Virus record (IMG/VR): IMGVR_UViG_2724679140_000015
Direction: 5' to 3' (one strand)
DNA length: 35,494 bases
DNA from: a virus
Lineage: Duplodnaviria; Heunggongvirae; Uroviricota; Caudoviricetes
Positions 271 through 35,494 of the stretch are shown piece by piece. The translations under genes were made by a program, and so were the position numbers. Each line of letters starts with the position of its first letter. Within the stretch, counting starts at the first letter, position 1. Below the pieces are notes generated by a model. That model ran no database searches and was not told the DNA's origin. It saw nothing but the letters and a program-made list of their open reading frames with translations.

Positions 271-279
271 TGATGCGGC

Positions 280-312
280 GCGAGATAAATAACACAAAAA
301 AGCGAGATAAAT
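280..312. repeat. Two 11-bp direct repeats GCGAGATAAAT (280-290, 302-312), 22 bp start-to-start; candidate transposase binding sites at the prophage terminus
   Basis: Exact repeat read directly from sequence; the spacing matches the ~22-bp periodicity of Mu end-binding sites. Confidence 0.5.
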
Positions 313-466
313 GGAACAAGCTTTACGTTACGGATATTGAAAAAGAATTGCAATTTTACACAATAGCTTCAAACCTTAACCCTGGCCTCATCACTTGTAA
401 ATATCCATGTTATTCTTTTGTATCAACTAACCTGTAACAGAAATGCATATATTCAGACATACACCA

Positions 467-506
467 GCCTGTACTCATGGATTTTACCGCCATCATGAGT
501 ACAGGC
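467..506. repeat. Perfect 13-bp inverted repeat (GCCTGTACTCATG / CATGAGTACAGGC) with a 14-nt loop, between the last tail gene and the phage end
   Basis: Read directly from sequence; no clear U-tract, so terminator function is uncertain. Confidence 0.4.
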
Positions 507-521
507 CGTAATTGTAGATAA

Positions 522-1142
522 CTATTCAGGTTTCTGAGGGAATTCGATGTCCTGGTTTATTTCTGGATTAACGTCACTAAGTCTTATTGTGTAGATCTCC
601 CACGCTTTAAGCAGTTCTTTTTCTTCATCTGATGCAAGTTCCAGACGAACTTTTCGCTCAAGCTGAGCGATGCGTGTTTCCGCTTCTTCTGATAACACTG
701 CTTTGTGTTTTCTGACAGCATCAATCCTGGCTTTTCTGGCTGCTTCTTTGTCCTCCACCCAGCGATGGCCATCCCATCTGTCAAATTCGCTTGTGGGTTT
801 GTGCATTGTTAATATTTCGGGCAACGGACCAATAAAATTAATGGTTACGGACTCTCTGGTTTGTGTATTAAAGGCTTCCATCCCACGATAATCGTCGACA
901 ATTTCCCAGGCTGTTCCATCTTCCGTGCGTCGAACCGCCTGACTGGCTTTTACTGGTAACTGAGGTTCATCCAGATATGCACCTTCTGACAGGGACACAT
1001 CGAACATGACATATTCCATGGTGGACCCCATGTATTCGCGTGTTACAGGATTAGCAAGGTAGCATTTAACCCATCCGGCCACGCTGGCCAGACCGTTATC
1101 ACCAATTTTTCCTTCCTGAATATTGACGTTATATTTTTGCAT
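522..1142 (-). CDS. tail fibre assembly protein (Mu U / P2 G-like chaperone)
   Basis: 206-aa ORF directly downstream of the tail fibre gene; C-terminal region fits the tail fibre assembly chaperone pattern. Confidence 0.55.
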   Translation of the reverse strand: MQKYNVNIQEGKIGDNGLASVAGWVKCYLANPVTREYMGSTMEYVMFDVSLSEGAYLDEPQLPVKASQAVRRTEDGTAWEIVDDYRGMEAFNTQTRESVTINFIGPLPEILTMHKPTSEFDRWDGHRWVEDKEAARKARIDAVRKHKAVLSEEAETRIAQLERKVRLELASDEEKELLKAWEIYTIRLSDVNPEINQDIEFPQKPE

Positions 1143-2134
1143 TATTTAGCCCTCACGATATATAAAAAAGCGATATTTCGCGGACGCGTTTCATTTGCAC
1201 CTTCATCATTTCCTACAGTGCGAATCGTTACCGAAAAACCACTGCCTACTGGATATTCATAATCCATAACTGGGGTATTGCCGAATTGCTGACTGAGGAT
1301 GCGTCTTCCTGTATCCACACCACGACCATTATCCCAGCCACGAATAAATTCACCGCGCAAATCCGGCAGGACACCACCTGGATAGGCAGAAGCCAGCCCG
1401 GGGTAGGTGGACGGGTTAAATCGTTGTCCGTTACAGATTAAGTAACCCGATGGCGGTGTGGCTAATGGCCAGGGAAGTGGTGCTCCCACAGGATATATGT
1501 CCAGACCGTCCAGAAGCGAAGTTAAATCAGATTTTAATGCCAGTTCCCCATCCTTATCCGGGAAGCTGTAATAAGTCCATTTTCCCCTGCGTTTCAGTCC
1601 AATGTTATTTTTTAGTCCCGGTTCGAGCCTGAGACCGTTTACATCATTTAATGTGTAGATACTGAAAATATCCCTGACTTCAATACTTCCCTGAAAGCGC
1701 TGAATTGTACTTTTCGTCAGGTATGCAACACTTCCTGAATCCGGATACCTGGTATCTGATTCGGCTTTTGTATAGCAGTCAACGGGCTGGTTATTATCTA
1801 ATTTTGACTGCAGATCAGCGATTGCCCCTTTTACAAATTTTGTCGTGGCCAGCTTATTGCTGTTATCCGCTTTATCCGCAGTTGGTGCAGTCGGGGTGCC
1901 GCTAAACGCCGGAGATTCTTTGTGGGCATACTGGGTATGTGGATCAGATGCTTTTTGATGGTCCTCCAGTCCCTTATCCTGACGTTCAGCTTTCTTTTTT
2001 AAATATGCTGTTCTGTTTGCCAGTTGTTCAGCCTGTCGGTTTGCAATCCCCCCTGGACCACCCAAAACTGGATCAGAAACTTCAAGCTGGTAAATGCCGT
2101 CTTCCCAGACAGCAGATTCATTTAGTTTCGCCAT
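1142..2134 (-). CDS. tail fibre protein
   Basis: 330-aa ORF in tail fibre position after the baseplate genes; start overlaps upstream gene stop. Confidence 0.5.
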   Translation of the reverse strand: MAKLNESAVWEDGIYQLEVSDPVLGGPGGIANRQAEQLANRTAYLKKKAERQDKGLEDHQKASDPHTQYAHKESPAFSGTPTAPTADKADNSNKLATTKFVKGAIADLQSKLDNNQPVDCYTKAESDTRYPDSGSVAYLTKSTIQRFQGSIEVRDIFSIYTLNDVNGLRLEPGLKNNIGLKRRGKWTYYSFPDKDGELALKSDLTSLLDGLDIYPVGAPLPWPLATPPSGYLICNGQRFNPSTYPGLASAYPGGVLPDLRGEFIRGWDNGRGVDTGRRILSQQFGNTPVMDYEYPVGSGFSVTIRTVGNDEGANETRPRNIAFLYIVRAK

Positions 2135-2715
2135 TACTGATGACTCCCATAATTATAATTACTGTCATAACAGGCTTCTGCGTTATAACGAACGGGTACA
2201 GACTGATAATCAAGGCTAATAAGATGGCATCGCGCGGGGGCAAAAAATGAAAGTACACGGCGTAATAATGTTGCCTGGTCATTAGTTATTGGCCTCTGTA
2301 ATATTACTCTGTATATAGCCCAGGAACTTTCGTCACCATAAAGGCAATACCCATTGAACTGTCTTTGGCCGTTATAATGTAATCCCCCCAGGCCTTCGAT
2401 TATGTCTACCTCCCCAAAACCGAAACGCCGAATAATCTCTCTGACTGACCACGGCGTTCCTTTGTAGCGGTGCAGCTCGATAGCAGATTTGATAAGCATG
2501 CGACGAACATCGTCCGATTCAGCAAGCTCCCAGCCATCACCGAACAGTGAGAACTGCTCGCCCAACCATGGCAGCGCGGAACTGTCGACGATATCGACGA
2601 GACAGACCATCAGTACGCTCAGGTCAATGTTATCCAGCCGCCCGGCCAGTCTTCCCAGTGTTCTGAGACTGATATCACCCTCAAGCGGTGGCGGGAGTTG
2701 TAACGGCTCAGTCAT
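2134..2715 (-). CDS. baseplate/tail protein (Mu gp48 / P2 gpI-like)
   Basis: 193-aa ORF; synteny after J-like baseplate gene. Confidence 0.45.
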   Translation of the reverse strand: MTEPLQLPPPLEGDISLRTLGRLAGRLDNIDLSVLMVCLVDIVDSSALPWLGEQFSLFGDGWELAESDDVRRMLIKSAIELHRYKGTPWSVREIIRRFGFGEVDIIEGLGGLHYNGQRQFNGYCLYGDESSWAIYRVILQRPITNDQATLLRRVLSFFAPARCHLISLDYQSVPVRYNAEACYDSNYNYGSHQ

Positions 2716-3811
2716 CGGACACTCCGGTCATGTTAAGAGTGATCGCCGTACAGTTTGCCCATTCGTTTTCTGCCAGCACCCGTAGTGTCGGTGTCACCAG
2801 TTCAACCTGGTACACCCCGGAAACGGACAGCACACTGATAATCTGGCTGGGAACAATATCGCGCCCCAGCGTGGCAGTACGAGAAGCCACCCAGTTCTGT
2901 ATGGCACTGTTAGCGTTATCCTTTACCGAGTTGGCATCCTGATCACGATAGATCGTAATCCTGGCTTCAATAGTGTAATCCACTTGAACAGGTGTTTTCG
3001 CCCGCACGGTATCAGTGAGCGGCCTGACTTTTTCGTCAGAACAGAAACTCTCTACCAGAGTGAGGATACTGCTGTCTGGCAGACCAGTACTGAGCAGCGG
3101 ATACAGCTCGACAGTGCCAGGAACCGGGGATAGCACGGCGACGTCGACAATGCTGGGATGCGCGCCCATAGCATGAAAACGGTATGCACCACGGCTTCCG
3201 GCATTGGTGAAGGACTCCGGGGCCAGCCTGATACGCTCCCGGAGTCGGTCATTGTCTTCCTGCTCTGAACCACCAGAACTGGCCGTCAGATTGGTCACCA
3301 GCAGGTCAACATTATCAATCTCATCAAGCAACTGACTGACCTGCGCAGGTTGCCAGCCGTTGCCAGAGGTACCCGGCTCGGTACAGGTGGCCGGGGCATT
3401 GACCAGTTGCAATCCGGCCTTCAGCACCACATCTGTATTGGTGGCAAAAATAACACTGTCGGAAGCGCTGACACGGGTGCCTGCCGGGATCAGCACATCA
3501 ATGGCCAGTGCCTCATCCAAGGAAAACTGAAGTGTGGTGGTGGCAGGCTGCGCGGCAAGGCGGTACACACCAACCAGTTCACCGAGGTAGTCAATCATCG
3601 GCTCGCGGGAAAAGGCGACCAGATTCAGCTTCGCCGCTTCCTGTACCGCCACCCTGACCAGGGTTTCACGATAGGCCCACAGGTCGATCAACAGACGTTC
3701 TGCCTGCGCCGGATACAGCTTTTTTCCGGTATCTGCCTCATATTTCGCAATCATTTCTGCCGTGATTTTATCGGCATCGCGTTCAATAAAATCGGGTTCT
3801 GTCAGCGCCAT
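2708..3811 (-). CDS. baseplate J-like protein (Mu gp47-like)
   Basis: 367-aa ORF; position and size within the baseplate cluster. Confidence 0.55.
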   Translation of the reverse strand: MALTEPDFIERDADKITAEMIAKYEADTGKKLYPAQAERLLIDLWAYRETLVRVAVQEAAKLNLVAFSREPMIDYLGELVGVYRLAAQPATTTLQFSLDEALAIDVLIPAGTRVSASDSVIFATNTDVVLKAGLQLVNAPATCTEPGTSGNGWQPAQVSQLLDEIDNVDLLVTNLTASSGGSEQEDNDRLRERIRLAPESFTNAGSRGAYRFHAMGAHPSIVDVAVLSPVPGTVELYPLLSTGLPDSSILTLVESFCSDEKVRPLTDTVRAKTPVQVDYTIEARITIYRDQDANSVKDNANSAIQNWVASRTATLGRDIVPSQIISVLSVSGVYQVELVTPTLRVLAENEWANCTAITLNMTGVSDD

Positions 3812-4149
3812 AGCAGTTCCTGAGTACGGGGTTGTCCGTCTGAGCCTTTCCAGCTCACCCGGAGCGTAAGATGTTCGCCGTCGACGGCGGGTTTAACCGA
3901 CATAAGCTGGCAGCGGGGTTCCCAGCGCCTGATGGCATCGACGGATTCGCGAACCACATGCGGAATGGCCCGGTCGACAGGCCAGTCGATATAAAGGTGC
4001 AGATTGCTGCCGAACTCCGGGCGATGCGGGTCGCTGCCGCGGGGAGTCCGCAGGATGATCTGGATGGACTGCCGGATATCATCCAGCCCCCGGACGATTT
4101 CGCCGGGAGCCTGCAGAGCTGGTTGCCAGAATACTGAGGTCGTTTTCAT
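3802..4149 (-). CDS. baseplate protein, gpW/gp25-like
   Basis: 115-aa ORF between V-like and J-like genes. Confidence 0.5.
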   Translation of the reverse strand: MKTTSVFWQPALQAPGEIVRGLDDIRQSIQIILRTPRGSDPHRPEFGSNLHLYIDWPVDRAIPHVVRESVDAIRRWEPRCQLMSVKPAVDGEHLTLRVSWKGSDGQPRTQELLWR

Positions 4150-4204
4150 AGGAGCAGTATTGCCCCCGGAAGGGAACGCCGATATTAAAGGCGTTTAAGA
4201 AACT

Positions 4205-4717
4205 TCAGTGCGAGTGATGATTAGAGTTCTGGCCATCTGACAACATACTGCCTGTCGAGTGGGCATTGCCGTTAATTTCAAGGTTGCCATTTACAGTGGT
4301 GGTGTCAGCGGTCAGAACAATAGTTTTCCCTTTCAGGCTGATATCCACTGCAACCTCGATCACCACATGCTCAATACCGCCTTTGACTGTCAGCGTATGG
4401 GTCGCGCGGTTATAACTGAACTCCGCGCCATCAGCGTATTTCGTGCCCCGGACGTTTTTATCACTGAACGGTGGTTTATCGACGTCTGAGTACACCGCGC
4501 CCAGTATAACACCATCCTCGCCGTTAGCATCGAGCAACACCTCAACTTGTTCCCCCACGTCAGGGAGCCAGTAATCCTTATTATCCTGGGTATTGTGCTG
4601 CAGCACGTTAAGCCAGTTTGTGCGCAGGTTATCGCATTCAGGCAGACGCACGCGGGCCTGAACCCTGTCTGCATCAACGGCACTGACCGTACCGACCTGA
4701 CGGGTGACACCAGTCAT
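4205..4717 (-). CDS. baseplate spike/assembly protein V-like
   Basis: 170-aa ORF; synteny in baseplate cluster. Confidence 0.5.
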   Translation of the reverse strand: MTGVTRQVGTVSAVDADRVQARVRLPECDNLRTNWLNVLQHNTQDNKDYWLPDVGEQVEVLLDANGEDGVILGAVYSDVDKPPFSDKNVRGTKYADGAEFSYNRATHTLTVKGGIEHVVIEVAVDISLKGKTIVLTADTTTVNGNLEINGNAHSTGSMLSDGQNSNHHSH

Positions 4718-5868
4718 TTTTTCTTCTCCTTAATCACCGTCGATGTACTGCCATCCGGGTGATAAACCGTGAGTTTCTGAGTTTTTTGTTTTTTCCCTCT
4801 TGTGACTGGCCCCCGTGCCACTTCCAGCTCTGTGGTGTAGCCGCTGTTACGCTCAAACGCATGGCGGGCAGTAATTATCAGCCATGGACCGGATAACTGT
4901 CCAAAGCCCACCAGTTCAATTTTGTTGCCTGCTGTCAGTTGAGGCGTTCCCGTCAGCGTCAGGGAGCCGTTCTGCTGGTATTCGTTATATCTGGCCAGTG
5001 CTGAATCCGCTTTAATCCGGGCACTGTCCGGGTCGCTGACACGGCTGTTAACTTTAAGTGAGTCAGCGCTGGTAACCTTACCACCTTTGAGCTTTTTGTC
5101 GCTTTCACGGGTACCACCATCAGCTTCGTAGACGATCAGTTTTTTACTGCTGCTTTTCTGGTGTTTTACCTTTGCAGATTTATAGACCCGGTTGATGGTG
5201 TCACGCAGGGAAAAGCGGGCCACATCCTGCGGTTTTAACTGCCTGACCGGCTCCTGACTGCGCAGTGTGGCCAGATGAGAAAAAATCAGCTGGTCACTGA
5301 CAACTTTCACTGCATAACCATACTCGCTGGCCAGCCGGCGCAGAAAACCCACGTCGGTTTCAGCATACTGGGTCACCCGGTCGATTTTGATGGACTCAAT
5401 GCTGCCCACCAGTTTCAGCCGGTGCTTTCTGGCAATCCGCCCCGCAACAGCCGCCAGCGTGGTGTTCTCAAAACCACGGCTGGATTTAGTCCGCAGAGCA
5501 CTGTTAACCGAGGTGGCCACCCCACGGATAGCGACAACGGACGCGGGCGAACTCACTTCGATCTCGTCTATTGAAAATGTACCGCAGGACAGCAGTTTCT
5601 CGCCCTGATAGCCCATTTTCAGCGTCAGAGTATCACCCTTACCCGGATACCACTTATCCAGCCAGCGACCATCGGTATCGTCCAGCTCCACCTCGATGGT
5701 ATCGGACTCATTTTTGATGTTATCGCTCCAGGTCACACGGGTAACATAAGGCGCGATATCTGAGGTGATGTTTTTCTGCAGATACCACAGAGTGAATACC
5801 GGTGTCAGCACATCACTGACGCCGGTTAACGCTGATGCGCCTTGCGAAGTGCTCTTTATCTCAGCCAT
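4714..5868 (-). CDS. tail protein, P2 gpD / Mu P-like
   Basis: 384-aa ORF after the X-like gene. Confidence 0.55.
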   Translation of the reverse strand: MAEIKSTSQGASALTGVSDVLTPVFTLWYLQKNITSDIAPYVTRVTWSDNIKNESDTIEVELDDTDGRWLDKWYPGKGDTLTLKMGYQGEKLLSCGTFSIDEIEVSSPASVVAIRGVATSVNSALRTKSSRGFENTTLAAVAGRIARKHRLKLVGSIESIKIDRVTQYAETDVGFLRRLASEYGYAVKVVSDQLIFSHLATLRSQEPVRQLKPQDVARFSLRDTINRVYKSAKVKHQKSSSKKLIVYEADGGTRESDKKLKGGKVTSADSLKVNSRVSDPDSARIKADSALARYNEYQQNGSLTLTGTPQLTAGNKIELVGFGQLSGPWLIITARHAFERNSGYTTELEVARGPVTRGKKQKTQKLTVYHPDGSTSTVIKEKKK

Positions 5869-6071
5869 GGGGCAATATCCTCTTCTGTACGGGCATCTTC
5901 AGCCTCAATAACCGGGATCAGTAACAACAACCCGGAGGGCAGCACTGGCGTAATGGCCACGTGCGGATTGGCGGCAATAATCCGGGGATAGCCCAACGGG
6001 TCACCGTAGTACTGCCATGCCAGCGAATCCCAGCGCTCTCCGTCACAGGTAATATGTTCAAGAAACATCAC
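5856..6071 (-). CDS. tail protein X-like (LysM-like small tail protein)
   Basis: 71-aa ORF with a GxRWD...YYG...II.ANP pattern typical of P2 gpX-like proteins. Confidence 0.5.
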   Translation of the reverse strand: MMFLEHITCDGERWDSLAWQYYGDPLGYPRIIAANPHVAITPVLPSGLLLLIPVIEAEDARTEEDIAPWLR

Positions 6072-6952
6072 ACACTCCTCGTCAGTATTCTGGCGGCCAT
6101 TGCACTTAATCCCGGAGACATGCGGTTGAATGCGGTGCCGGCAGCGTTAAGCTGCCCGGAAACGGTATCCAGAGCACCTGCAATATTTCTTTTGTCCACA
6201 CCACTCAGCGCCGACTGCGCCTGCTGTACACACATGACTGCTTCGCTGGCTGTTCTGGCCAGACTGATGGCATCGGGCATGGATTCAGAGAGAGCATTAA
6301 ATGCCGGAATACTTTTCCCCAGAGATCCGGATATATTACCCAGTCCGCTCATCAGTCCCGGCACACGGGTCAGCGCGACAACGGGGTTACCTTTCATTTT
6401 CTGCGCCACCCGAACGGCACTGATGGTAGTCTGGAGTACAGACTGCGCCTGTTTCGCATAGTTGACACCGTTACGGACGAACTGAGCCACCCCGGAAGGC
6501 GATGGAACAGCACCAGATACGGCCCCGGCTCCGGGAACCTGCCTGCGTATTGCCGGCGGTTGCAGAGGATTTTTGGGGTCACCGGTGTATTCCCGGAGAG
6601 ACACGGTGGCACTGACAGCCAGCACGTTACCGGTGCTGTCTGTCTGCTCGCTGGTTGCGGTCACATCGGTAATCACGAACCAGCCGCGATAGTCACCGTT
6701 GCCGAAAACCAGCGCCAGTGCCTGATGGGCCTTCATGGCTGTTCGCAGTCTCGCCAGCTCCACGTCGGGCACACAATAATGCTGATGGAAGATCAGACTT
6801 ATCTGGATTTCGTCCAGCCTGTCGCCGACGAACTGCAGGCCGGGTTTACCCTCGATGCGGGCATGCTCCGCATAATCGACGCCGAACGTGGCCTCGAAGC
6901 CGTCCCAGTAGGTAATCAGTTCAAACTCAATATCACCCAGTACGGCAAACAT
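6068..6952 (-). CDS. DNA circularization protein N-like (tail protein)
   Basis: 294-aa ORF immediately downstream of the tape measure gene, as in Mu. Confidence 0.45.
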   Translation of the reverse strand: MFAVLGDIEFELITYWDGFEATFGVDYAEHARIEGKPGLQFVGDRLDEIQISLIFHQHYCVPDVELARLRTAMKAHQALALVFGNGDYRGWFVITDVTATSEQTDSTGNVLAVSATVSLREYTGDPKNPLQPPAIRRQVPGAGAVSGAVPSPSGVAQFVRNGVNYAKQAQSVLQTTISAVRVAQKMKGNPVVALTRVPGLMSGLGNISGSLGKSIPAFNALSESMPDAISLARTASEAVMCVQQAQSALSGVDKRNIAGALDTVSGQLNAAGTAFNRMSPGLSAMAARILTRSV

Positions 6953-10308: not shown

Positions 10309-10310
10309 CG

Positions 10311-15843: not shown

Positions 15844-16057
15844 TTTGCTGTCCCGCGTTATGTTGTCGGAGACAGTTTGTGAGAAATGCAGGCCCGGCGA
15901 TTTTAATCTGCTTTAGAAAACATCAGGAGTGAAGGACAGGGAAAGCAATGCGGTGAACCGGAGGCGGTTATAAAACAGAGGCTGTAAAGCCTTTATAAAG
16001 GTAATACAGCCCCTCATTCGCTGGCAATGATAAATCACCCGCCTGAAGAGAGAAACC

Positions 16058-26302: not shown

Positions 26303-26308
26303 AACAAA

Positions 26309-26757: not shown

Positions 26758-26781
26758 GTGAGTTTTTCTGCACTCTTTAAG

Positions 26782-26810: not shown

Positions 26811-26857
26811 CTATCACACATAAGGCAAACATCATTGCATCAACAAAGGAGACAACG

Positions 26858-27046: not shown

Positions 27047-27098
27047 AGATTTTGAGTCTTTGTAAAAGGTTATCACATATCGCAAAAGAGGTATGCAG

Positions 27099-27407
27099 AT
27101 GAGTAAGACGAATGTTTCAAGCTCCGGCAGTCGCATCCTCCGGGTACTCAAAGCGCTGCGCGGTCATGCCCTGAACGGTATTTCCAACGGTGAACTGGCG
27201 GCAGCACTGCACGAGTCACCGGCAAACATCAACCGGGCACTCAACACCCTCATTGAAGAAGGGTTGGCCCTGAAACTGGAAAACGGGCGTTTCGCGCCGG
27301 GCATCCAGTTACTGCAGATCGCTATGGCCCACAGTAACGAGATGGCACGTGCACAGGATCGCATTAACGAAATCAACCAACGTGTCATTTCAGGTAGTCG
27401 TTTGTAA
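27099..27407 (+). CDS. putative winged-helix DNA-binding protein
   Basis: RILRVLKAL...ISNGELAAAL...INRALNTLIEEGL resembles a MarR/IclR-type wHTH; RBS AAAGAGG 7 nt upstream of ATG 27099. Confidence 0.4.
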   Translation: MSKTNVSSSGSRILRVLKALRGHALNGISNGELAAALHESPANINRALNTLIEEGLALKLENGRFAPGIQLLQIAMAHSNEMARAQDRINEINQRVISGSRL

Positions 27408-27417
27408 GGAGTAATAA

Positions 27418-28329
27418 ATGGGACGCACCAAATCACCGATTAACACTGAACTGAACGCCGAGGTACCGCTGTCGGATGATCTCAATGTCAGTCTGAACGC
27501 CATGACACAGCATCGCATGGAGATCATGCAGCAGTTTGGCGATGGTCAGCCCTATGAGCGTGATCGCATAGTTCATGAGGCTCGGTTTTATATGGCACAG
27601 AGCGCTGAGGCCATGCTGGAAGCAGGTAAACGACTTATTATTCTCAAAGAAAATGAACCACACGGGGACTTTGTTGGAATTGTAGAAGAACAACTTGGTC
27701 TGCATGTGCGCGCAGCACAACGAATGATGAAAGCATCTTTGAAATACCTTTCACCAAAACTAGAGCCAAAAGCGACAACGTTGTCGCTTTTAGGTAAGGC
27801 AAAATTATTTGAACTTGTTGCTGAAGATGACGACGACCTTGCTGAACTGGCCGACGGCGGCACAGTCGCAGGACTGACGCTTGACGATGTTGATCGCATG
27901 TCAGTACGTGAATTGCGTCAGGCCCTGCGCGAAGCGCGCGAAACCAACGCAGCACAACAGCGCGTACTCGCCGACAAAAATGAAAAAATAGACTCACTCT
28001 CCACCAGACTGGAGAAGAAATCCCGTATTCAGCCGCCTGAGCCTGATGAGGAGGTTAAGAAGCTGCGGGCGGAAGTAACAGCATTAGCGGTTGAGGCGGA
28101 ATCTGCTATCGCCGTTCGACTGTCCAGCGCTTTTGAGACACTGTGCGCATATTGTGCTGAAAACATGATTGATACCCCCAGAGATTTCATGGCAGGCCTG
28201 GTCTGTCAACTGGAAAGCACAGCGCGTAGCCTGCGCTCCACATTTGACCTGCCGGACGAGCCAACAGGCAATGCAGCGCCTTCATGGCTGACTGAGCCGA
28301 CGCCACAGATTAACGGGCTGGAGGCATAA
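27418..28329 (+). CDS. hypothetical early protein
   Basis: 303-aa ORF with TAAGGAG RBS; sits between ner and the transposase gene. Confidence 0.4.
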   Translation: MGRTKSPINTELNAEVPLSDDLNVSLNAMTQHRMEIMQQFGDGQPYERDRIVHEARFYMAQSAEAMLEAGKRLIILKENEPHGDFVGIVEEQLGLHVRAAQRMMKASLKYLSPKLEPKATTLSLLGKAKLFELVAEDDDDLAELADGGTVAGLTLDDVDRMSVRELRQALREARETNAAQQRVLADKNEKIDSLSTRLEKKSRIQPPEPDEEVKKLRAEVTALAVEAESAIAVRLSSAFETLCAYCAENMIDTPRDFMAGLVCQLESTARSLRSTFDLPDEPTGNAAPSWLTEPTPQINGLEA

Positions 28330-28332
28330 CCA

Positions 28333-30102
28333 ATGAATGCTGCCCTGACTGAACGACTGGTTTATGTCGCCCGCGCGGCACGTGACGCGGGGCATGGTAA
28401 ACGCGGTGCAATATACGACGCTGCCTGTGCTGAACTTGGCATGTCCCGCGCCACTCTGCTGCGCAGGCTGAAGGAGGTCTCTGTGACTGATAAACGCAAA
28501 AAACGCGCCGATGCCGGGCGCAGCGCCCTGACCCGCGACGAAGCCGCGCTGATATCTGCCACACTGCGTGAGGCCACCCGCAAGAACGGTAAGCGTCTTT
28601 ATTCCATCGCGGATGCAGTGGAAACCCTGCGGGCTAACGGCTTTATCTCCGCAGGCAGAACAGATGAAACCACCGGTGAGTTTTTCCCGTTGTCCGAAGA
28701 TGCCATCAGTCGTGCCCTGCGTAACTATGGCCTGCACCCGGAACAACTGGATGCCCCTGCACCGCATACCGAAGTGGCCAGTCTGCACCCCAATCATGTC
28801 TGGCAGATTGACGCCTCACTATGCACGCTTTACTACCTGAGCAATGGACATAAAGGGCTGCAGGTGATGGACAGCGCGAAATTCTACAAGAACAAGCCCG
28901 CTAACCTTGCCCGTATCGCCAGTGACCGCGTGTGGAGTTACGAGATTACCGACCATGCCAGCGGCTGGATTTACGTTGAGTATGTGACGGGTGCGGAATC
29001 CGGTGAGAACCTGTGTTCTGTGCTTATCAACGCCATGCAGGAGCGCGGTGGCGCAGACGTGCTGCACGGCGTGCCGAAAATACTCTATCTCGACCCCGGT
29101 TCGGCGAACACCGCGGGTATGACGAAAAACATGTGCCGCTCACTGGGCATCGACCTGATAGCGCACAGGCCGCATAACGCCCGCGCCACCGGACAGGTGG
29201 AAAAGGCGCGTGACATTATCGAACGCAAGCTGGAGCCGGGTCTGAAGTTCCGGCCGGTTCACAGTCTGGAAGAACTCAACGCGCTGGCCGCGAAATGGCG
29301 CAGCCACTTTAACGCCACGGCTGTTCACAGCCGCCACGGTAAAACCCGCACGGATATCTGGCTGAAGATTACTGCTGAGCAGCTGAAAAAAGCGCCTTCC
29401 GTTGAGGTATGTCGTGAACTGGCTGTGGCGGCACCAGAACTCCGCAAAGTCACGCCAAAACTTCGTGTCTCGTTCCGGGGCACTGAATTTGACGTATCAA
29501 CGGTACCGGGCGTACTGGTCGGTGAAAAACTGATGATTACCCGTAACCCGTGGCGCAGCGATGTGGCACAGGTGGTTCTGACCGGTGAGGACGGCCACGA
29601 GACGTTCTTCCTGGTCGAAGAGGTCAGAAAGAACGAGTTTGGCTTTGCTGAAGGCGCGGCGGTATTTGGCGAAAGTTACAAAGCCCTGCCGGAAACCCCG
29701 GCGCAGATGGCGGCAAAAGAAACCGAAGCGCTGGTCACCGGTACAGACAACGCCGCAGATGCAGCTGCCGCACGCAAGGCGAAGGCACTGCCGTTCGGCG
29801 GACGACTTGACCCGTATAAACATATTGATGACGCCACACTTCCGGCCTATATGCCGAAGCGTGGTCAGGCCTCTGACGTACGCGGGCCGCGCACTGAACA
29901 ACGTCCCATGACTCATGTGGAGGCCGCGAAAGCCCTGCGCGATAAGTTCAGCGCCAACGGCCTTACCTGGACGCCGGAACATTACCGCCAGTTAACGGCA
30001 CAGTACCCGGACGGCGTACCGGAAGCCGCACTGGATGAAGTCATGGCCACGCTGACCACGCCGGTCCGCAGCAGTGTTATCAGCATTGTTAACGGCAACT
30101 GA
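28333..30102 (+). CDS. DDE transposase A (retroviral integrase-fold)
   Basis: 589-aa ORF with N-terminal HTH-like region and catalytic-core-like WQIDAS...ITDHASG motifs; followed by the ATPase gene. Confidence 0.75.
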   Translation: MNAALTERLVYVARAARDAGHGKRGAIYDAACAELGMSRATLLRRLKEVSVTDKRKKRADAGRSALTRDEAALISATLREATRKNGKRLYSIADAVETLRANGFISAGRTDETTGEFFPLSEDAISRALRNYGLHPEQLDAPAPHTEVASLHPNHVWQIDASLCTLYYLSNGHKGLQVMDSAKFYKNKPANLARIASDRVWSYEITDHASGWIYVEYVTGAESGENLCSVLINAMQERGGADVLHGVPKILYLDPGSANTAGMTKNMCRSLGIDLIAHRPHNARATGQVEKARDIIERKLEPGLKFRPVHSLEELNALAAKWRSHFNATAVHSRHGKTRTDIWLKITAEQLKKAPSVEVCRELAVAAPELRKVTPKLRVSFRGTEFDVSTVPGVLVGEKLMITRNPWRSDVAQVVLTGEDGHETFFLVEEVRKNEFGFAEGAAVFGESYKALPETPAQMAAKETEALVTGTDNAADAAAARKAKALPFGGRLDPYKHIDDATLPAYMPKRGQASDVRGPRTEQRPMTHVEAAKALRDKFSANGLTWTPEHYRQLTAQYPDGVPEAALDEVMATLTTPVRSSVISIVNGN

Positions 30103-30112
30103 GGAGGAAAAC

Positions 30113-31279
30113 ATGCTGGTACTGAAGCAGCAACTGAAAGAGGCCCGTATCCCACAGGCGGTGGTGGCGAGAGCTGTCGATGTTTCTGAGGCCACGCTGG
30201 CCCAGATTGTGAATCATAACGCGTGGCCCCGCACCCGCCCCGGAGAAGTGCGCCGGCGTCTTGCGTCCTGGCTGGAAAGTCAGGGGATTGATACAACGAA
30301 GAGTTTTGATGCTGTACAGGGCGCGGCCACGCCCCGTACAGCGGGTACCACAGATAAAACGAGCCTCAGTGAGGAAGAGAATATGTTACTCAAAAAACAG
30401 GTGTTATTTCCAGCAACCAAAAAAGCGTTTGGTCTTTTCCGTGACCCGTTCGCCGACGAAGCCATGCAGGGTTCTGATGATGTGTTCACCACCCCGGACA
30501 TCCGCTATGTGCGTGAAGCGCTGTACCAGACAGCCCGTCATGGTGGGTTTATGGCCGTCATCGGTGAGTCCGGTGCGGGCAAATCCACGCTGCGCCGCGA
30601 CCTGACTGAACGAATCAACCGCGAGAATGCGCCGGTAATTGTTATCGAGCCATACGTCATCGCTATGGAAGACAACGATGTGAAAGGGAAAACTCTGAAG
30701 GCAGCAGCGATTGCCGAAGCCATTATCAGTACCATTGCACCACTGGAAAGCATCAGACGCAGTCAGGACGCCCGCTTTCGCCAGTTGCATCGCGTCCTGA
30801 AAGACAGCAGCCAGGCGGGGTTCAGCCACGTTCTGGTGATTGAGGAGGCCCACAGCCTGCCCATTCCGACACTGAAACACCTCAAACGCTTTTTTGAGCT
30901 GGAGTCCGGTTTCAAAAAACTGCTGTCCATCGTGCTGATTGGCCAGCCGGAACTGGCGACAAAACTGTCTGAACGCAATATGGAAGTCCGTGAAGTCGTT
31001 CAGCGCTGTGAGGTGGTCGAACTTCTGCCTCTGGACAATCACCTTGAAGAGTTTCTGACGTTCAAACTGCAACGGGCCGGTAAACAACTGACGGACATTA
31101 TGGACGCCAGCGCAGTGGATGCCATACGTGCCCGCCTGAGCAATCCGGGAAGTCATCGTAAAAACAGGGTCAGCCTGCTGTATCCGCTGGCCGTCAGTAA
31201 CCTGGTAATAGCCGCCATGAATCTGGCTGCTGAAATCGGGGTTCCACAGGTCAACGCTGACGTTGTCAAAGGGGTTTAA
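30113..31279 (+). CDS. transposition ATPase B (AAA+, MuB/TniB-like)
   Basis: Walker A GESGAGKST; N-terminal HTH-like segment; GAGGAGG RBS 5 nt upstream of ATG 30113. Confidence 0.7.
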   Translation: MLVLKQQLKEARIPQAVVARAVDVSEATLAQIVNHNAWPRTRPGEVRRRLASWLESQGIDTTKSFDAVQGAATPRTAGTTDKTSLSEEENMLLKKQVLFPATKKAFGLFRDPFADEAMQGSDDVFTTPDIRYVREALYQTARHGGFMAVIGESGAGKSTLRRDLTERINRENAPVIVIEPYVIAMEDNDVKGKTLKAAAIAEAIISTIAPLESIRRSQDARFRQLHRVLKDSSQAGFSHVLVIEEAHSLPIPTLKHLKRFFELESGFKKLLSIVLIGQPELATKLSERNMEVREVVQRCEVVELLPLDNHLEEFLTFKLQRAGKQLTDIMDASAVDAIRARLSNPGSHRKNRVSLLYPLAVSNLVIAAMNLAAEIGVPQVNADVVKGV

Positions 31280-31281
31280 TA

Positions 31282-31551
31282 ATGAAATCCACCACAGGTA
31301 TCAACCAGCAAATCAGCAAAGTGCTGTCAGCCATTATGGCGCTTAAGGCGACGAACACGGATGTACAAAGCATCACCATCAGGGGTAACAAACCTGTCAT
31401 TCGCGTTTCCAGGAGTGCGCATTGCATGCGCATGCTTGAGCAGGGGAAAGCCAGTTATCTGTATACCGGTCATGACCACAGGGGACATTTCCGTCAGGGC
31501 GTTTTCGAACTGCACGGCTGTCGCGTCGTGTGGCCGGAATCTCTGTGGTAA
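31282..31551 (+). CDS. hypothetical early protein
   Basis: 89-aa ORF starting 2 nt after the B stop. Confidence 0.35.
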   Translation: MKSTTGINQQISKVLSAIMALKATNTDVQSITIRGNKPVIRVSRSAHCMRMLEQGKASYLYTGHDHRGHFRQGVFELHGCRVVWPESLW

Positions 31552-31578
31552 TCAGCACAACAGGAGGAGTCATAAAAT

Positions 31579-32109
31579 ATGGCAAAAAGTACAAAAGGGG
31601 CAAAACGTATCAAGGCCGCAGCAGCACTCTGGGTGCCGGGGACACGTGAAGAGGTCATTGAGGGAATCAGACTGCTCGGTGACGCACAACGTGAACTGGT
31701 CAGGGCTGAAACAGAAATGAATGACGCCATTGGCGATATCACCGCTCGTTATGCCCCGCTCACCGAGAGCCTGAAAAAACGCATGGCCGAACTGCAGTCC
31801 GGTATCCAGACATGGTGTGAGGCGCACCGTGACGAACTGACCGGCAACGGGAAGGTGAAGTTCGCTAACCTCACCACTGGCGAGGTGCAGTGGCGAAACC
31901 GTCCACCGTCAGTCAGCATTCGCGGGGCGGATAATGTTATTGAACTACTGAGACGTCTGGGGCTTGAGCGCTTTATTCGTGTAAAAGAGGAAATAAATAA
32001 AGACGCTATCCTGAATGAAAAAGAGGCTGTGAAAAATATTCCCGGTATTACCATAAAAAGCGATATTGAGGATTTTTCAATAATTCCTTTTGAACAGGAT
32101 GTGCAGTAA
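31579..32109 (+). CDS. gam: host-nuclease inhibitor Gam (Ku-like DNA end-binding protein)
   Basis: Near-colinear similarity to Mu Gam as I recall it (MAK...KRIKAAAA, ETEMNDAI, RPPSVSIRG, IEDFSIIPFEQ). Confidence 0.8.
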   Translation: MAKSTKGAKRIKAAAALWVPGTREEVIEGIRLLGDAQRELVRAETEMNDAIGDITARYAPLTESLKKRMAELQSGIQTWCEAHRDELTGNGKVKFANLTTGEVQWRNRPPSVSIRGADNVIELLRRLGLERFIRVKEEINKDAILNEKEAVKNIPGITIKSDIEDFSIIPFEQDVQ

Positions 32110-32206
32110 ACACACCACGTTAATTATTTAATAAAAACATTTTCTTTTTTATTCCGGCGTCAGCGCCGTGGGCTTCTGCACGCCGGAAACAGAGGAGAAT
32201 TAAATC

Positions 32207-32401
32207 ATGATATTTAAATGTATTCAGTGCGAGAGGGATATAACAGCCCTGCGTTTTCACAGCGCCATCGCCGTGATGTCCGGTAAGTACCACGTACCTG
32301 CAGTACGTGTCACCCTGGTCTGTCCGTACTGCAGCCAGCATTTTTCGGCGGACGTGCCCGTCATGGAATTCTCCCGCCCTGACAGGGAGGACGCGCAATG
32401 A
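32207..32401 (+). CDS. small zinc-ribbon-like protein
   Basis: CxxC ... CPYC pairs in 64 aa; AGAGGAG RBS. Confidence 0.35.
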   Translation: MIFKCIQCERDITALRFHSAIAVMSGKYHVPAVRVTLVCPYCSQHFSADVPVMEFSRPDREDAQ

Positions 32402-32670
32402 TTACCCCACAGGAAGCACGACAGCGCACCCGACTCCTTGTTGAACACTATGTCAACGAGTGTGAATGCCGCGACCTCACTGATGTGAAGCACGTCCTGA
32501 CGGCGCTAATCAGCATGGCCGCTCAGGCCATTGTGGCGACCAACGGAAAGGAGGCTGCCCTGCAGGTACTGGTGAACACACTCACCCATACGGCACAGCA
32601 CGAAGTGCCGTACCGGATGGAAACCACTGCAGAAGGCAACCTGAACATCACCGTCGATCGGAAGCACTGA
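32398..32670 (+). CDS. hypothetical protein
   Basis: 90-aa ORF translationally coupled to neighbours. Confidence 0.3.
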   Translation: MITPQEARQRTRLLVEHYVNECECRDLTDVKHVLTALISMAAQAIVATNGKEAALQVLVNTLTHTAQHEVPYRMETTAEGNLNITVDRKH

Positions 32671-32679
32671 GGGCGCGGC

Positions 32680-32982
32680 ATGACACGTAACACCATACGC
32701 ACACGCACCGCCCTCTATCGTCTGGCCCTGCAGCGTTTCGGGCCGGATGCACAGTCACTGAAACTGACAGAAGAGGCCGCTGAACTGGCAGCCTGTGCTG
32801 CCCGCAACCTGAACGGACAGGGCAGCGAAAGTGACCTCGCGGCAGAACTGGCAGACGTGGAAATCATGACAGAGCAGTTGCGCCTTCAGGGGATGGACCG
32901 ACTGATTGACTTCCACAAACAGAAAAAACTGGAACGCCTTGCCGCACGGCTGGGCGTCACATACACCGGAGAAATCATATGA
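32680..32982 (+). CDS. possible MazG-like nucleotide pyrophosphohydrolase
   Basis: EEAAELA ... ELADVEIM pattern resembles the EExxE...DxxD signature of small all-alpha NTP pyrophosphatases; weak. Confidence 0.35.
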   Translation: MTRNTIRTRTALYRLALQRFGPDAQSLKLTEEAAELAACAARNLNGQGSESDLAAELADVEIMTEQLRLQGMDRLIDFHKQKKLERLAARLGVTYTGEII

Positions 32983-33362
32983 ACTGCACTGAACAGACGC
33001 CACAACTGACGCCTGAAGATGTTGCACAGCGTATTCGGGTACTGGAAGACGAAAACGAATACCTGCGCAAGAGATTTGAAGAGGTGGACCTGTACTTCGG
33101 GCGCAATCTGGTTGTCATGAAAGCTGCAGTGATTGAGTGGCGGGCCACCGGTGATGCCAGGAACGGCATGGCGTGGATTTACAACACCCTGTGTGGGCCG
33201 GGCGAACTGCCGCCGCAAGAGGAGAAAGAGGCACAGGAATACTTCAACAGGGAAACTGAAGTTATCGACAGAAAACTGGCTGCCCTGTACCACTGGTTCA
33301 GGAAATACCACAGGACACACGCCGCACCTGACCAGACCACCACAGGAGGTACCGGTGACTGA
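32979..33362 (+). CDS. hypothetical protein
   Basis: 127-aa ORF, coiled-coil-like N-terminus. Confidence 0.3.
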   Translation: MNCTEQTPQLTPEDVAQRIRVLEDENEYLRKRFEEVDLYFGRNLVVMKAAVIEWRATGDARNGMAWIYNTLCGPGELPPQEEKEAQEYFNRETEVIDRKLAALYHWFRKYHRTHAAPDQTTTGGTGD

Positions 33363-33570
33363 CACCATTATGGAAATTGTGGTATGGGCTTTCCTGCTTA
33401 CTGGTATAGCCGTGTGCATCTGCGCCGGATTCGCCCTGGTTGCCCTGCTGACCCACGTGGTGACGCAGTGGTTGTGGGTAAAGCTTAAAGCAGCATACAG
33501 CCTGAAAGAGCTGTCCGACGCTGTTCGGGCATGGGAACAGCAAAAAAATACCGGAGATACTGAACAATGA
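33355..33570 (+). CDS. small membrane protein
   Basis: Single hydrophobic helix; GTG start 5 nt after AGGAGG; ORF-track start at 33133 is probably over-extended. Confidence 0.3.
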   Translation: MTDTIMEIVVWAFLLTGIAVCICAGFALVALLTHVVTQWLWVKLKAAYSLKELSDAVRAWEQQKNTGDTEQ

Positions 33571-34250
33571 CAGACCAGGATAAGCACATTGAGAAACTGA
33601 AAAAGTTGCTGGCGCTGGCAGCATCCGGCAACCCGCATGAGGCTGCTCTGGCACTGCGCCGCGCCCGTAAACTGATGGATGTTCACGGCATCACACATTC
33701 CGACATCGCCATGAGTGATATTGATGAAACCATCAGTCACTACTGGCCGACAGGCAGCCTCCGTCCGCCGCGCTACATGCTGGGCCTGATGAACATCATC
33801 CGCGAGGCATTTGGTGTTAACTCCATCATTCACCCCGGCACATATCCGGGTGTGGGGTTCTACGGCAACCGGGAACGGGCCGCACTGGCTGCGTACACCT
33901 GGGAAGTGCTGGCCCGTCAGCTGAAAAAGGCGCGTCAGCAGTATATCAGTACACAGAACAAAAGAATAAAAACCGCCACCCGCACCAGCCGTGGAGACCA
34001 GTTTGCTGAAGGCTGGGTGCTGGCCGTTATCAGTGAAATACAGTCCTTCGCCCTGACCGATGACGAACGTGAACTGATGCAGCAGTGGCTGGAACATAAA
34101 TACCCGCAGACGCAAACCACCAGGGCGCGTAAACCGGGAAGAAGTCGCAATGGCGACACCTCGCGCTATGCGGGGTTTCGAGAAGGGCAGAACGTCAGAC
34201 TGCACCGACCGGTCAGTGGGCGGGAACAGCAGAAACTGGAGGCCAGATGA
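33567..34250 (+). CDS. DUF2786-like phage protein
   Basis: N-terminal IEKLKKLLALAASGNPHEAALALRRARKLM matches the hallmark of that family as I recall it. Confidence 0.45.
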   Translation: MTDQDKHIEKLKKLLALAASGNPHEAALALRRARKLMDVHGITHSDIAMSDIDETISHYWPTGSLRPPRYMLGLMNIIREAFGVNSIIHPGTYPGVGFYGNRERAALAAYTWEVLARQLKKARQQYISTQNKRIKTATRTSRGDQFAEGWVLAVISEIQSFALTDDERELMQQWLEHKYPQTQTTRARKPGRSRNGDTSRYAGFREGQNVRLHRPVSGREQQKLEAR

Positions 34251-34477
34251 TGACGTTATCAGGTAACAGCCGGAAATTAAAAGCCTGCCGAATATCTGCC
34301 AGATACCTTTTTGCCCGCGCCTTTTTTAAGAACGTCAGGCCGGGGATCACAATTGGTGTTATTGCCGGACGCGAACAGGTTGAAAAATATATGTCAGGTG
34401 CATGGTGGAATAACGACCCAGTCATTGCTGCCCGTAATATTCATATCAGTTGGGGGGATATTCAGAATGACGGCTGA
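34247..34477 (+). CDS. hypothetical protein
   Basis: 76-aa ORF, translationally coupled. Confidence 0.3.
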   Translation: MMTLSGNSRKLKACRISARYLFARAFFKNVRPGITIGVIAGREQVEKYMSGAWWNNDPVIAARNIHISWGDIQNDG

Positions 34478-34682
34478 ATCTGTTGTATGTGCCCTGTTCT
34501 GGTATTGTTTTGTCGGTTGGTGTACTGCTGAACTGCAGCGCCGTTCAGGGTTTTATTCACGTTACAGTGGTGCCGGCTACTGGATTAGCTGGTCGGTGAT
34601 GTTCCTGTGCTGGCCTGTGGCGCTTCCTTTATATGTCGATTATATCGGTGGCGCAGGTAAAAGGAGCAACGATGATGACTAA
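34467..34682 (+). CDS. small membrane protein
   Basis: Two hydrophobic, Trp/Cys-rich segments; start at internal ATG 34467. Confidence 0.3.
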   Translation: MTAESVVCALFWYCFVGWCTAELQRRSGFYSRYSGAGYWISWSVMFLCWPVALPLYVDYIGGAGKRSNDDD

Positions 34683-35124
34683 ACAACGTCTTATCCAGCT
34701 CATTCATATTGCCCGTAATGAACTGGGTATGGATGAAGACACCTACCGCCAGATGTTAGAGGGGCTGACCGGTAAAGCCTCAACCAAAGGAATGGATACC
34801 ACACAACTAAACTGCGTGCTGGAATCCATGAAAAGGAAAGGCTTTCGCGTTAAGCCTGCCGGAAAAGCCAGCTCCGGTTTACAGCTGGATAACCATCCGC
34901 AGTCCAGGAAAATCCGTGCGCTATGGCTTGAAATGGCTGCTGCCGGCATTGTTCGTGACCGTTCAGAAAATGCATTAGCGCGGTGGATCAAGCGGGAAAC
35001 GGGCATCAGCGCCCTGCGCTGGCTCAGTACTGAACAGGCAAGCAGTGTTATTGAGAAACTGAAGAAGTGGCAGCGCAGAGCTGCGGGAGTAAAACATGAG
35101 CGACCTGAATCAGTTTCGAAGTAA
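34672..35124 (+). CDS. GemA-like protein (Mu gp16-like)
   Basis: Located immediately upstream of the Mor-like gene as in Mu; AAGGAG RBS 5 nt upstream of ATG 34672. Confidence 0.5.
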   Translation: MMTKQRLIQLIHIARNELGMDEDTYRQMLEGLTGKASTKGMDTTQLNCVLESMKRKGFRVKPAGKASSGLQLDNHPQSRKIRALWLEMAAAGIVRDRSENALARWIKRETGISALRWLSTEQASSVIEKLKKWQRRAAGVKHERPESVSK

Positions 35125-35494
35125 AGGGCCGGAACTCCTGGTGGAACTGGCACAGCATACCTCTGAGACCGTTCGCGAGATTATTGATATTGAGCCCGCA
35201 ATTGCCGACCAGATTGGTCAGGCCGTCGCGAACCGAATGATGCAGGTCTGGGGCGGGCAAAACGTTTATTTCCCGATGGGCATGGTATGGAAGGTCAGTC
35301 AGCGCGACCGGGAAATCTTCAGGGAGTTTAACGGACGCAACCACCACGAACTGGCCCGCAAGTTTGGTGTTTCGCTTCAGTGGGTCTACAGCGTGGTTAA
35401 GCGGGTCAGAAAAGAAGAACTGGATCGGATGCAGGGCAGGTTGTTTGATGAAGATCTGCCAGAGGAGACGAAAGACGTTAACAAATCCAGATAA
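35096..35494 (+). CDS. mor: Mor-like middle-operon transcription activator (Mor/C family)
   Basis: 132-aa ORF with C-terminal HTH-like region (GRNHHELARKFGVSLQWVYSVVKRVR); position after gemA-like gene. Confidence 0.55.
   Translation: MSDLNQFRSKGPELLVELAQHTSETVREIIDIEPAIADQIGQAVANRMMQVWGGQNVYFPMGMVWKVSQRDREIFREFNGRNHHELARKFGVSLQWVYSVVKRVRKEELDRMQGRLFDEDLPEETKDVNKSR

Follow-up and report, generated by a model that had tools for sequence, protein, structure and literature searches.

The 35,494-nt stretch of phage DNA that we analysed (the window) raises the question of whether two gene blocks that point away from each other belong to one phage or to two elements joined head to head. The initial annotation placed the structural and lysis genes on the minus strand, the early genes on the plus strand and a repressor with cargo genes between them, and our colinear tblastn map together with RefSeq annotation bears this out. 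Every real gene from 522 to 23243 (tail, head and lysis) lies on the minus strand, a call that is based on colinear tblastn matches of BcepMu gp21-gp52 and on how RefSeq annotates a prophage that is 95-98% identical. Every real gene from 26858 to 35494, from a BcepMu-gp16-family gene through mor, lies on the plus strand. The arms thus read outward, the early operon toward one terminus and the late genes toward the other, and between them are a P-loop-like hypothetical protein, two paralogous hypothetical proteins, a Dam-type methylase and a helix-turn-helix (HTH) repressor. The sign of the GC skew flips at the same place as the strand switch. The late block had been delimited as 522-23276 and its extent holds, but 23276 belongs to the longest holin open reading frame (ORF), and the likely start is at 23243, with an AAGGAG ribosome-binding site. 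Almost certainly, the window spans all but the right end of a single BcepMu-like transposable E. coli prophage, for which the divergent layout is native.

The first 270 nt (1-270, minus strand) are host DNA, the 3' part of the adenine permease gene adeP, which the prophage interrupts; the rebuilt empty site matches intact adeP. The left, tail-fibre-side terminus (271-330, plus strand) starts with TGAT exactly at base 271 and begins TGATGCGGCGCGAGATAAAT. It carries two GAGATAAAT repeats (282-290 and 304-312), which are putative transposase binding sites; the motif is confined to this terminus within the window (chance expectation 0.1). The left copy of the target-site duplication, TGCAGC, occupies 265-270. 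The window covers the element from 271 to the mor stop codon at 35494, and because it ends at that codon, the right 1,108 bp of the element fall outside it. We therefore took the right terminus from a near-identical contig (1 mismatch in 11,928 nt) that runs beyond the window end. There, the plus-strand arm ends in CATGTCTGATCA, followed by the right copy of TGCAGC and the remainder of adeP. The reverse-complemented right terminus mirrors the left end, so that the element, 36,332 bp (36.3 kb) in total, has TGAT...ATCA ends with paired GAGATAAAT repeats, an arrangement that recurs at both BcepMu termini; TG...CA ends that bear repeated motifs for transposase binding are a trait of BcepMu-like transposable phages. 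The second terminus that had been expected beyond 35494 is thus present, but the duplication is 6 bp long and not 5 bp.

In silico excision of the 36,332-bp insert yields an intact adeP that is 100% identical over 300 nt to many E. coli genomes, a confirmation that applies to the adeP insertion. The same ends, again with 6-bp duplications, are found in four relatives, whose insertion sites lie in yfiB, yjjI, a yegU-like gene and otsA, giving 6 bp in five of five insertions (TGCAGC, CGGCGC, ACGCAC, GGTAAA and GCTGGA). Transposases of the B3/Tn552 family have been described as leaving a 6-bp repeat as their footprint (PMC8705779). Together, the insertions disrupt five different host genes, and host genes are inactivated because this type of phage inserts into varied genes.

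Two mobile elements or prophage fragments joined head to head, or an assembly chimera that links the blocks near 23.3-26.4 kb, would account for the strand switch itself and for the drop in G+C to 0.47 at 24-27 kb. We give this reading practically no chance. A single matched pair of termini and one 6-bp duplication bracket both arms, excision restores adeP exactly, the terminal repeat motif was not found in the central region of the window, and only one transposase gene is present in the window. The joint is also seen in assemblies made independently (one NCBI contig of 85.9 kb and two contigs from Logan), in 492 of 5,426 complete E. coli genomes (~9%), in two phage records (PhiKM and KP12) and, at the protein level, in BcepMu. 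The termini with their duplication, the adeP empty site and this recurrence exclude two elements, a rearrangement and a chimeric joint, and they support the alternative that had been proposed alongside them, a single BcepMu-type element with a divergent layout.

The late arm of this element consists of four units, all on the minus strand. The first (16058-23243) encodes a holin, an SLT endolysin, Rz/Rz1-like spanins, two small proteins, TerS, TerL, portal and Mu F-like and G-like proteins, as judged from matches to BcepMu gp21-gp31 and to Mu TerL, portal, F and G. The second (10027-15843; BcepMu gp32-gp40) encodes the protease/scaffold, major capsid protein, head-tail connectors, tail sheath, tail tube and a small ORF. 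P2-like tail genes make up the third (4205-9928; BcepMu gp41-gp48), namely those for the tail assembly chaperone, tape measure, gpU, gpX, gpD and gpV. The fourth (522-4149; tblastn matches to BcepMu gp49-gp52 and Mu U) encodes gpW, gpJ, gpI, the tail fibre (1142-2134) and the tail-fibre assembly protein (522-1142).

Each of the four late intergenic gaps holds one match to the pattern yTAA-N6-TTAAwAkc (at 23310, 15915, 9997 and 4197), and these are the only four matches in the window, all on the minus strand (shuffled sequence gives 0.28). We consider them candidate late-promoter boxes. In the divergent intergenic region (23244-23373, minus strand) the box is CTTAACGCGCTTTAAAATC, which starts at 23310 and precedes the holin start codon by 67 nt; no sigma-70-like promoter was found upstream of the holin gene in this region. 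The gap between the G-like and protease genes (15844-16057, minus strand) contains a strong hairpin at ~15955-16015 and then the box at 15915, and has two sequence blocks conserved with BcepMu. In the next gap (9929-10026, minus strand), a terminator-like hairpin (10005-10020) is followed by the box at 9997; terminator-like hairpins thus precede two of the boxes. The box CTTAAACGCCTTTAATATC of the last gap (4150-4204, minus strand) starts at 4197, and the same box is found upstream of BcepMu gp49. Homologous gaps of BcepMu, PhiKM, KP12 and the E. coli C51 prophage contain a conserved copy of the candidate box; BcepMu has its four late gaps at the same places and the same box in three of them, with no clean box in the gap upstream of gp41.

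The central accessory region (23374-26302) is of mixed strands and lower G+C. It encodes a hypothetical 247-aa protein of phrog_3787 (23374-24117, plus), two paralogous hypothetical proteins of phrog_2266 (24093-24497 and 24963-25343, both minus), a 71-aa ORF (24496-24711, plus) and a Dam-type N6-adenine methylase (25538-26302, plus). Next to it is an HTH_3 repressor that is homologous to BcepMu gp17 (26419-26835, minus), for which 26757, 26835 and 26910 are all conceivable starts. Upstream of the first early gene, a consensus match to a sigma-70-like promoter (TTGACT-17-CATAAT; 26782-26810, plus) represents a candidate early promoter.

The early operon, entirely on the plus strand, starts with three genes (26858-28329) for a BcepMu-gp16-family DNA-binding protein (26858-27046; TIGR04111, 97 bits against a cut-off of 34), a winged-HTH regulator (27099-27407) and a gp10-like DUF3102 protein (27418-28329). 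An rve/Tn552-type DDE transposase (28333-30102; Pfam rve, 68.5% amino-acid identity to BcepMu gp09) adjoins an AAA/ExeA-type target ATPase (30113-31279; Pfam AAA_22, 59.5% amino-acid identity to BcepMu gp08), and this pair stands in place of MuA and MuB. The remaining early genes (31282-35124) include Gam (31579-32109), a DUF2786 protein (33567-34250), GemA (34675-35124) and small hypothetical proteins. The last gene in the window encodes its sole Mor/C-family transcription activator (35096-35494; Pfam Mor, E=1e-43; 56% identity to BcepMu gp01), and the Mu Mor and Mu C queries both match only this gene. A late activator gene had been anticipated beyond 35494, and a second set of late genes downstream of mor on the plus strand had been named as the result that would speak against a single element. 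Neither is there: from mor to the right terminus in the near-identical contig we found no further activator or late gene, only a 210-aa and a 53-aa ORF.

Among known phages, we compared the window with Burkholderia phage BcepMu (NC_005882; Summer et al. 2004), of which phiE255 is a close relative. Of the 50 BcepMu proteins, 37 map colinearly on the window with their strands all flipped consistently across the joint (tblastn; mean identity 50.7%), all 37 conserved genes are full-length, and all 14 blastn HSPs are in a single orientation. In the published description of BcepMu, its genes form two clusters that oppose each other; lysogeny control sits where they meet, and the lysis cassette comes next (PMC2771037). 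In the BcepMu annotation, genes 1-16 are on one strand and genes 17-52 on the other. Correspondingly, the window has gp16 and gp17 homologs at the interface, then the lysis cassette, head genes and P2-like tail genes. In both phages, the early operon (gp16-family, winged HTH, gp10-like, Tn552-type transposase, AAA ATPase and onward to GemA and Mor) diverges from the repressor side, the repressor, lysis cassette, Mu-like head genes and P2-like tail genes follow the same order, and the termini are of the same design, TGA(A/T) and then two (G)CGAGATAWWT repeats ~22 bp apart. They differ in the block between repressor and holin (Dam methylase, two phrog_2266 proteins and one phrog_3787 protein here, gp18-gp20 in BcepMu), in the middle of the early operon (Gam and DUF2786 here, HU, DUF3164 and pyrophosphatase in BcepMu), in the cargo at the end, where this phage lacks the acyltransferase and has the hydrophobic 210-aa protein beyond mor instead, and in the host (E. 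coli versus Burkholderia). Nucleotide similarity to BcepMu is ~18.5% (blastn), and megablast gave no match to BcepMu. The ICTV genus rule is 70% nucleotide identity; this is therefore the same kind of phage as BcepMu, but outside the genus Bcepmuvirus sensu stricto.

Mu (NC_000929) is likewise a temperate myovirus that transposes, and its genome is about as long. Its Gam, GemA, Mor/C, TerL, portal, F and G have homologs here, its late genes are trans-activated from several promoters, and the G-I intergenic gap is a conserved operon boundary. In contrast to the element described here, Mu is colinear, with every gene except the repressor on the same strand, as the initial annotation had said. 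In Mu, mor and C are two genes, the tail module is of another kind and mom is present. Mu makes 5-bp duplications, compared with 6 bp here. With no match to the Mu A and Mu B queries in the window, a single Mor/C gene, a divergent gene order and 6-bp duplications, the element falls outside Muvirus. Formally, its layout is that of Mu with the whole immunity-plus-early segment inverted, and therefore the repressor/operator region is internal to the genome. This formal relation, and the colinearity of Mu with its homologous gam, gemA, mor and head genes, would fit an inversion of the early segment in this strain of an originally colinear Mu-like phage. Such an event is very improbable, however, as the transposase is of the Tn552 type and not MuA, and the orientation is fixed throughout the group, namely in BcepMu, KP12, PhiKM, the B3-like phage JBD18 and five E. 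coli prophages, each at a locus of its own; an inversion, if there was one, would be an old event that marks the lineage. JBD18, one of the B3-like Pseudomonas siphoviruses (Beetrevirus), shares a 57% identical transposase, the divergent arrangement and a mor gene at the far end of an outward-reading early operon, whereas its tail module is that of a siphovirus and the late-promoter box is absent from it. The back-to-back layout, which had been taken as unusual, is already described and normal for BcepMu-like transposable phages: PMC2771037 gives it as their organisation, and B3-like Pseudomonas phages have it too.

Escherichia phage PhiKM (PQ738613), Klebsiella phage KP12 (clone KP12_2, OM835952) and prophages of E. 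coli, for example the one in strain C51, are essentially the same phage as the one described here, with 86-98% nucleotide identity over most of the window and the same joint, genes, ends and 6-bp duplications. They differ in the tail-fibre tip and assembly genes (271 to ~2390 in the window) and in the number of small accessory genes, and PhiKM lacks the cargo beyond mor. GenBank files PhiKM under Bcepmuvirus nonetheless. In the PhiKM record, a fragment of a host gene adjoins a terminus, a hint that replicative transposition may occur and that packaged virion DNA may carry random host sequence at both ends. In the relatives, a DNA invertase and alternative fibre genes are often present near the left end. 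This copy lacks them, so that it may be asked whether the layout is native but the copy a defective, immobile remnant in which the regulatory scheme no longer operates. We consider this unlikely: BcepMu itself is without a tail-fibre inversion system (PMC2771037), each of the 37 genes conserved with BcepMu has its full length and its colinear position, the two ends of the element and the target duplication are undamaged, and PhiKM (93-94% identical) and KP12 (86-87% identical) were deposited as phage records.

For the intact-looking prophage, a regulatory scheme can be proposed in which gene content is established by homology and the mode of action of the genes is inferred; the late boxes and the early promoter are read from the sequence. 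The HTH repressor (26419-26835, minus) would keep the divergent early promoter near 26782-26810 shut. Upon induction, the plus-strand early operon would be expressed, beginning with the gp16-family and winged-HTH regulators, followed by the Tn552-type transposase, AAA ATPase, Gam and GemA and ending with Mor. Transposase action at the GAGATAAAT-type repeats within the termini (TGAT...ATCA) would produce the 6-bp target duplications. The single Mor/C-family activator, made last, would diffuse and turn on four activator-dependent late promoters marked by the boxes, from which four units would be transcribed (lysis/terminase/portal, head/sheath/tube, tail and baseplate/fibre). As the late genes would be activated in trans and not by read-through, the relative orientation of the arms would carry no regulatory cost. 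The Mu C site, TTAT-N6-ATAA, has the same half-site geometry as the box. We tentatively suggest, as one possibility, that in BcepMu-like myoviruses the two-step Mor-then-C cascade of Mu has collapsed into one Mor/C protein that directly recognises yTAA-N6-TTAAwAkc at four late promoters on the opposite arm, and that the conserved hairpin of the G-I gap is perhaps also a central organising site like the strong gyrase site of Mu, and not a terminator alone. We found no description of these boxes in the accessible literature, to which the original BcepMu paper does not belong.

The layout itself is of little discovery value: it is textbook for BcepMu-like and B3-like phages, and phage records and E. 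coli prophages almost identical to this one have been made public. For annotation, a single BcepMu-type prophage that looks intact can confidently be assigned to the window; it lies in adeP, its ends are exact and its target duplication measures 6 bp. Phages of this type are common in E. coli (~9% of complete genomes). The four conserved candidate late boxes and the single Mor/C protein offer a simple, testable model for how late-gene timing may be achieved in a phage with outward-reading arms.

The layout proposed in the initial annotation, with late genes on the minus strand and early genes on the plus strand, was borne out by the annotation of a close relative, by similarity to the proteins of Burkholderia phage BcepMu (NC_005882), by family profiles, and by GC skew. 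A mechanical list of open reading frames was uninformative by itself, and the real genes were fixed by three independent lines. In the RefSeq annotation of the prophage of Escherichia coli C51, which is 95-98% identical, the genes from tail-fibre assembly to holin are all on one strand and those from a small DNA-binding protein to Mor are all on the opposite strand. A tblastn search with all 50 BcepMu proteins located 37 of them along the window in strictly conserved order: gp52 to gp21, from tail fibre to holin, at 1829-23222 (minus), the repressor gp17 at 26470-26754 (minus), and gp16, gp12, gp10, gp09 (transposase), gp08, gp02 (GemA), and gp01 (Mor) at 26861-35446 (plus). Pfam, PHROGs, and NCBIfam concordantly detected an rve transposase, an AAA_22 ATPase, an HTH_3 repressor, and a D12 adenine methylase, as well as Mor (E=1e-43), and the BcepMu_gp16 family was matched with 97 bits (cut-off 34). 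GC skew is negative through ~23 kb and positive past ~27 kb. The positions first read from the sequence were accurate: the element begins at base 271, and the first early gene has its ATG at 26858. The window ends at the mor stop codon.

Contigs running past the window were found through the exact DUF2786 protein. One NCBI contig of 85.9 kb and two Logan contigs match the last 11,928, 8,348, and 2,836 bases of the window with 1, 1, and 0 mismatches, respectively, and all extend further. The element closes with ...GTTATTTATCTCACGGATCCCCCTTCATTTATCTCATGTCTGATCA, 1,108 bp past the window. This is the second terminus with inverted end repeats that had been anticipated beyond 35494; its reverse complement starts TGATCAGACATGAGATAAAT...CGTGAGATAAAT and mirrors the left terminus, which starts TGATGCGGCGCGAGATAAAT...GCGAGATAAAT with equal repeat spacing. 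The host bases TGCAGC are present both before the left end (265-270) and after the right end (13037-13042 in L005, the near-identical contig), and when the flanks are joined with a single TGCAGC, the resulting 300 nt match the intact adeP of many E. coli genomes at 100% identity. TGCAGC on both sides and the restored adeP thus show that a single 36,332-bp element inserted into adeP with a 6-bp target duplication. The ends were located by eye and by regular expression; a whole-prophage inverted-repeat search did not pick them out, because the repeats are short and imperfect.

Two arms pointing away from each other could also reflect a chimera or two elements joined head to head. An internal end marking two elements was sought across the window with the terminal repeat motif GAGATAAAT, whose only copies are at 282-312 (0.1 expected by chance), so there is no cryptic terminus in the 23-27 kb region. 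The 1.1 kb between mor and the right terminus contains neither a second Mor/C gene, although the initial annotation had suggested looking for a late activator past 35494, nor a second set of late genes, and the single-element reading stands. The joint itself is native. In the BcepMu record, the bottom strand carries genes 1-16, with Mor outermost, and the top strand carries the repressor gp17, the lysis cassette, the head genes, and the P2-like tail genes. All 14 blastn HSPs obtained by comparing BcepMu with the window share a single orientation. The joint is also present in Escherichia phage PhiKM (PQ738613; 93-94% identity; filed under Bcepmuvirus) and in the colinear Klebsiella phage KP12 clone (OM835952). 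Among 5,426 complete E. coli genomes, 492 contain the joint, as judged by coverage of at least 80% of window 22000-35494; for window 1-25000, the same coverage threshold is reached by 278. An exact copy of the window was found in none of the complete E. coli genomes of the collection, the best match being 97.7% identical. A chimera or head-to-head fusion is refuted, and the window belongs to one BcepMu-type element with the divergent layout that had been preferred at the outset.

Some of the records compared have peculiarities of their own. PhiKM was deposited in circularly permuted form, with a fragment of a host gene (20180-20760) separating the tail fibre from the mor-side terminus, and the KP12 clone is filed under Vequintavirinae though it is a BcepMu-like element; these look like annotation or assembly oddities. 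Unexpectedly, Campylobacter phage records MG065686 and MG065691 carry a 270-nt stretch with 93% identity to the adeP fragment of the window (1-270), which may represent contamination or transfer.

Four related prophages, each in a different host gene, share these termini and likewise have 6-bp duplications: C51 in yfiB (CGGCGC), AR_0081 in yjjI (ACGCAC), VG38-53E1 in a yegU-like gene (GGTAAA), and M-17 in otsA (GCTGGA). With adeP, five different genes were hit and all five insertions show 6 bp, instead of the 5-bp duplication initially expected. A 6-bp repeat is the footprint of B3/Tn552-family transposases (PMC8705779), and the transposase type fits the duplication observed here.

The element has all testable defining features of BcepMu-like phages, namely the transposase type, the two-cluster layout, a Mu-like head with a P2-like tail, TG...CA ends with paired repeats, and the 6-bp duplication. 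Nucleotide similarity to BcepMu is ~18.5%, which falls outside the strict genus criterion, and mean protein identity is 50.7% (37 proteins). Judged from these sequence comparisons, the element is the same kind of phage as BcepMu but not of the same genus. The B3-like Pseudomonas siphovirus JBD18 shares the divergent plan, and its transposase is 57% identical. Mu, in contrast, is colinear, with the single-strand gene order after the repressor that the initial annotation described, and has only Gam, GemA, Mor/C, TerL, portal, F, G, and part of U in common with the window. Assignment to Muvirus does not apply: MuA and MuB are absent from the window, gene order differs, the target duplication in Mu is 5 bp rather than 6 bp, and one Mor/C gene is present here versus two in Mu.

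Between the arms, the repressor gene points away from the first early gene, with a sigma-70-like candidate promoter (TTGACT-17-CATAAT) at 26782-26810. The repressor start (26419-26910) is ambiguous among three candidates: ATG 26757, which matches the N-terminus of BcepMu gp17 and leaves a 100-bp operator region; ATG 26835, chosen by gene callers; and GTG 26910, which gives the longest ORF and would overlap the first early gene. The accessory block (23374-26302) has lower G+C (~0.47) and encodes a 247-aa protein (phrog_3787) that matches a P-loop only faintly, two paralogous proteins of unknown function (phrog_2266, one or two copies in relatives), a 71-aa ORF, and a Dam-type methylase. Beyond mor (L005 11929-13036), the only ORFs encode a 210-aa protein (plus) whose N-terminal half is hydrophobic and a 53-aa product (minus), neither with a family match. 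In PhiKM, mor is only ~150 nt from the terminus, so this cargo is variable. The methylase was the sole match of the accessory and cargo proteins to PADLOC and NCBIfam, and no defence system can thus be claimed. At the other end of the element, the tail-fibre tip and assembly genes (271-2390) are unrelated to their PhiKM and KP12 counterparts. A DNA invertase and alternative fibre genes are found beside the left end in KP12, AR_0081, VG38-53E1, and M-17; the window copy lacks them, and C51 retains only a pseudogene.

Only four intergenic gaps in the late arm exceed 30 bp, and their positions match those of gaps in BcepMu. Each of these gaps in the window contains a single yTAA-N6-TTAAwAkc on the late strand; the copies, at 4197, 9997, 15915, and 23310 (minus), precede the start codons of the gpW, tail chaperone, protease, and holin genes, respectively, by 48-72 nt. 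The four matches to this pattern compare with 0.28 in shuffles, and the 8-mer TTAAWATC has five matches, all on the minus strand (1.0 expected). The box is also present at homologous sites in PhiKM, KP12, and C51, and in BcepMu upstream of gp21, gp32, and gp49 (11486, 18813, and 30775); it was absent from JBD18. No sigma-70-like promoter was detected upstream of the holin gene, and terminator-like hairpins are directly upstream of two boxes. Upstream of Mu com/mom, TTAT-N6-ATAA, the Mu C binding site, has the same geometry as the two TTAA half-sites 6 bp apart. We regard the four boxes as candidate late promoters dependent on Mor.

The G-like and protease genes are separated by a gap (15844..16057) that also has a strong hairpin (~15955-16015, minus; -23.5 kcal/mol, z = -3.8) followed by a U-run, which shares the block TTTATAAAGGCTTTAC with BcepMu (18730-18790) despite ~50% protein identity. 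Mu has its strong gyrase site at the matching position. The palindrome does not align with the Mu sequence and folds like a terminator, so a gyrase-site role is listed only as a possibility; the hairpin looks like a terminator.

Gene content rests on homology, from which we infer how the genes act. Mu Mor and Mu C both match only 35096-35494, so a single Mor/C-family gene closes the early operon. This lone activator, the last early product, would turn on the four late units of the opposite arm in trans, and under such activation the relative orientation of the arms would be free to differ from that of Mu. The architecture is published and common, and the finding is therefore already known. Modestly new, and incidental, are the four conserved late boxes with the single-activator cascade they may serve, the conserved hairpin at the position of the Mu gyrase site, and the frequency of these prophages in E. 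coli and the way they insert.
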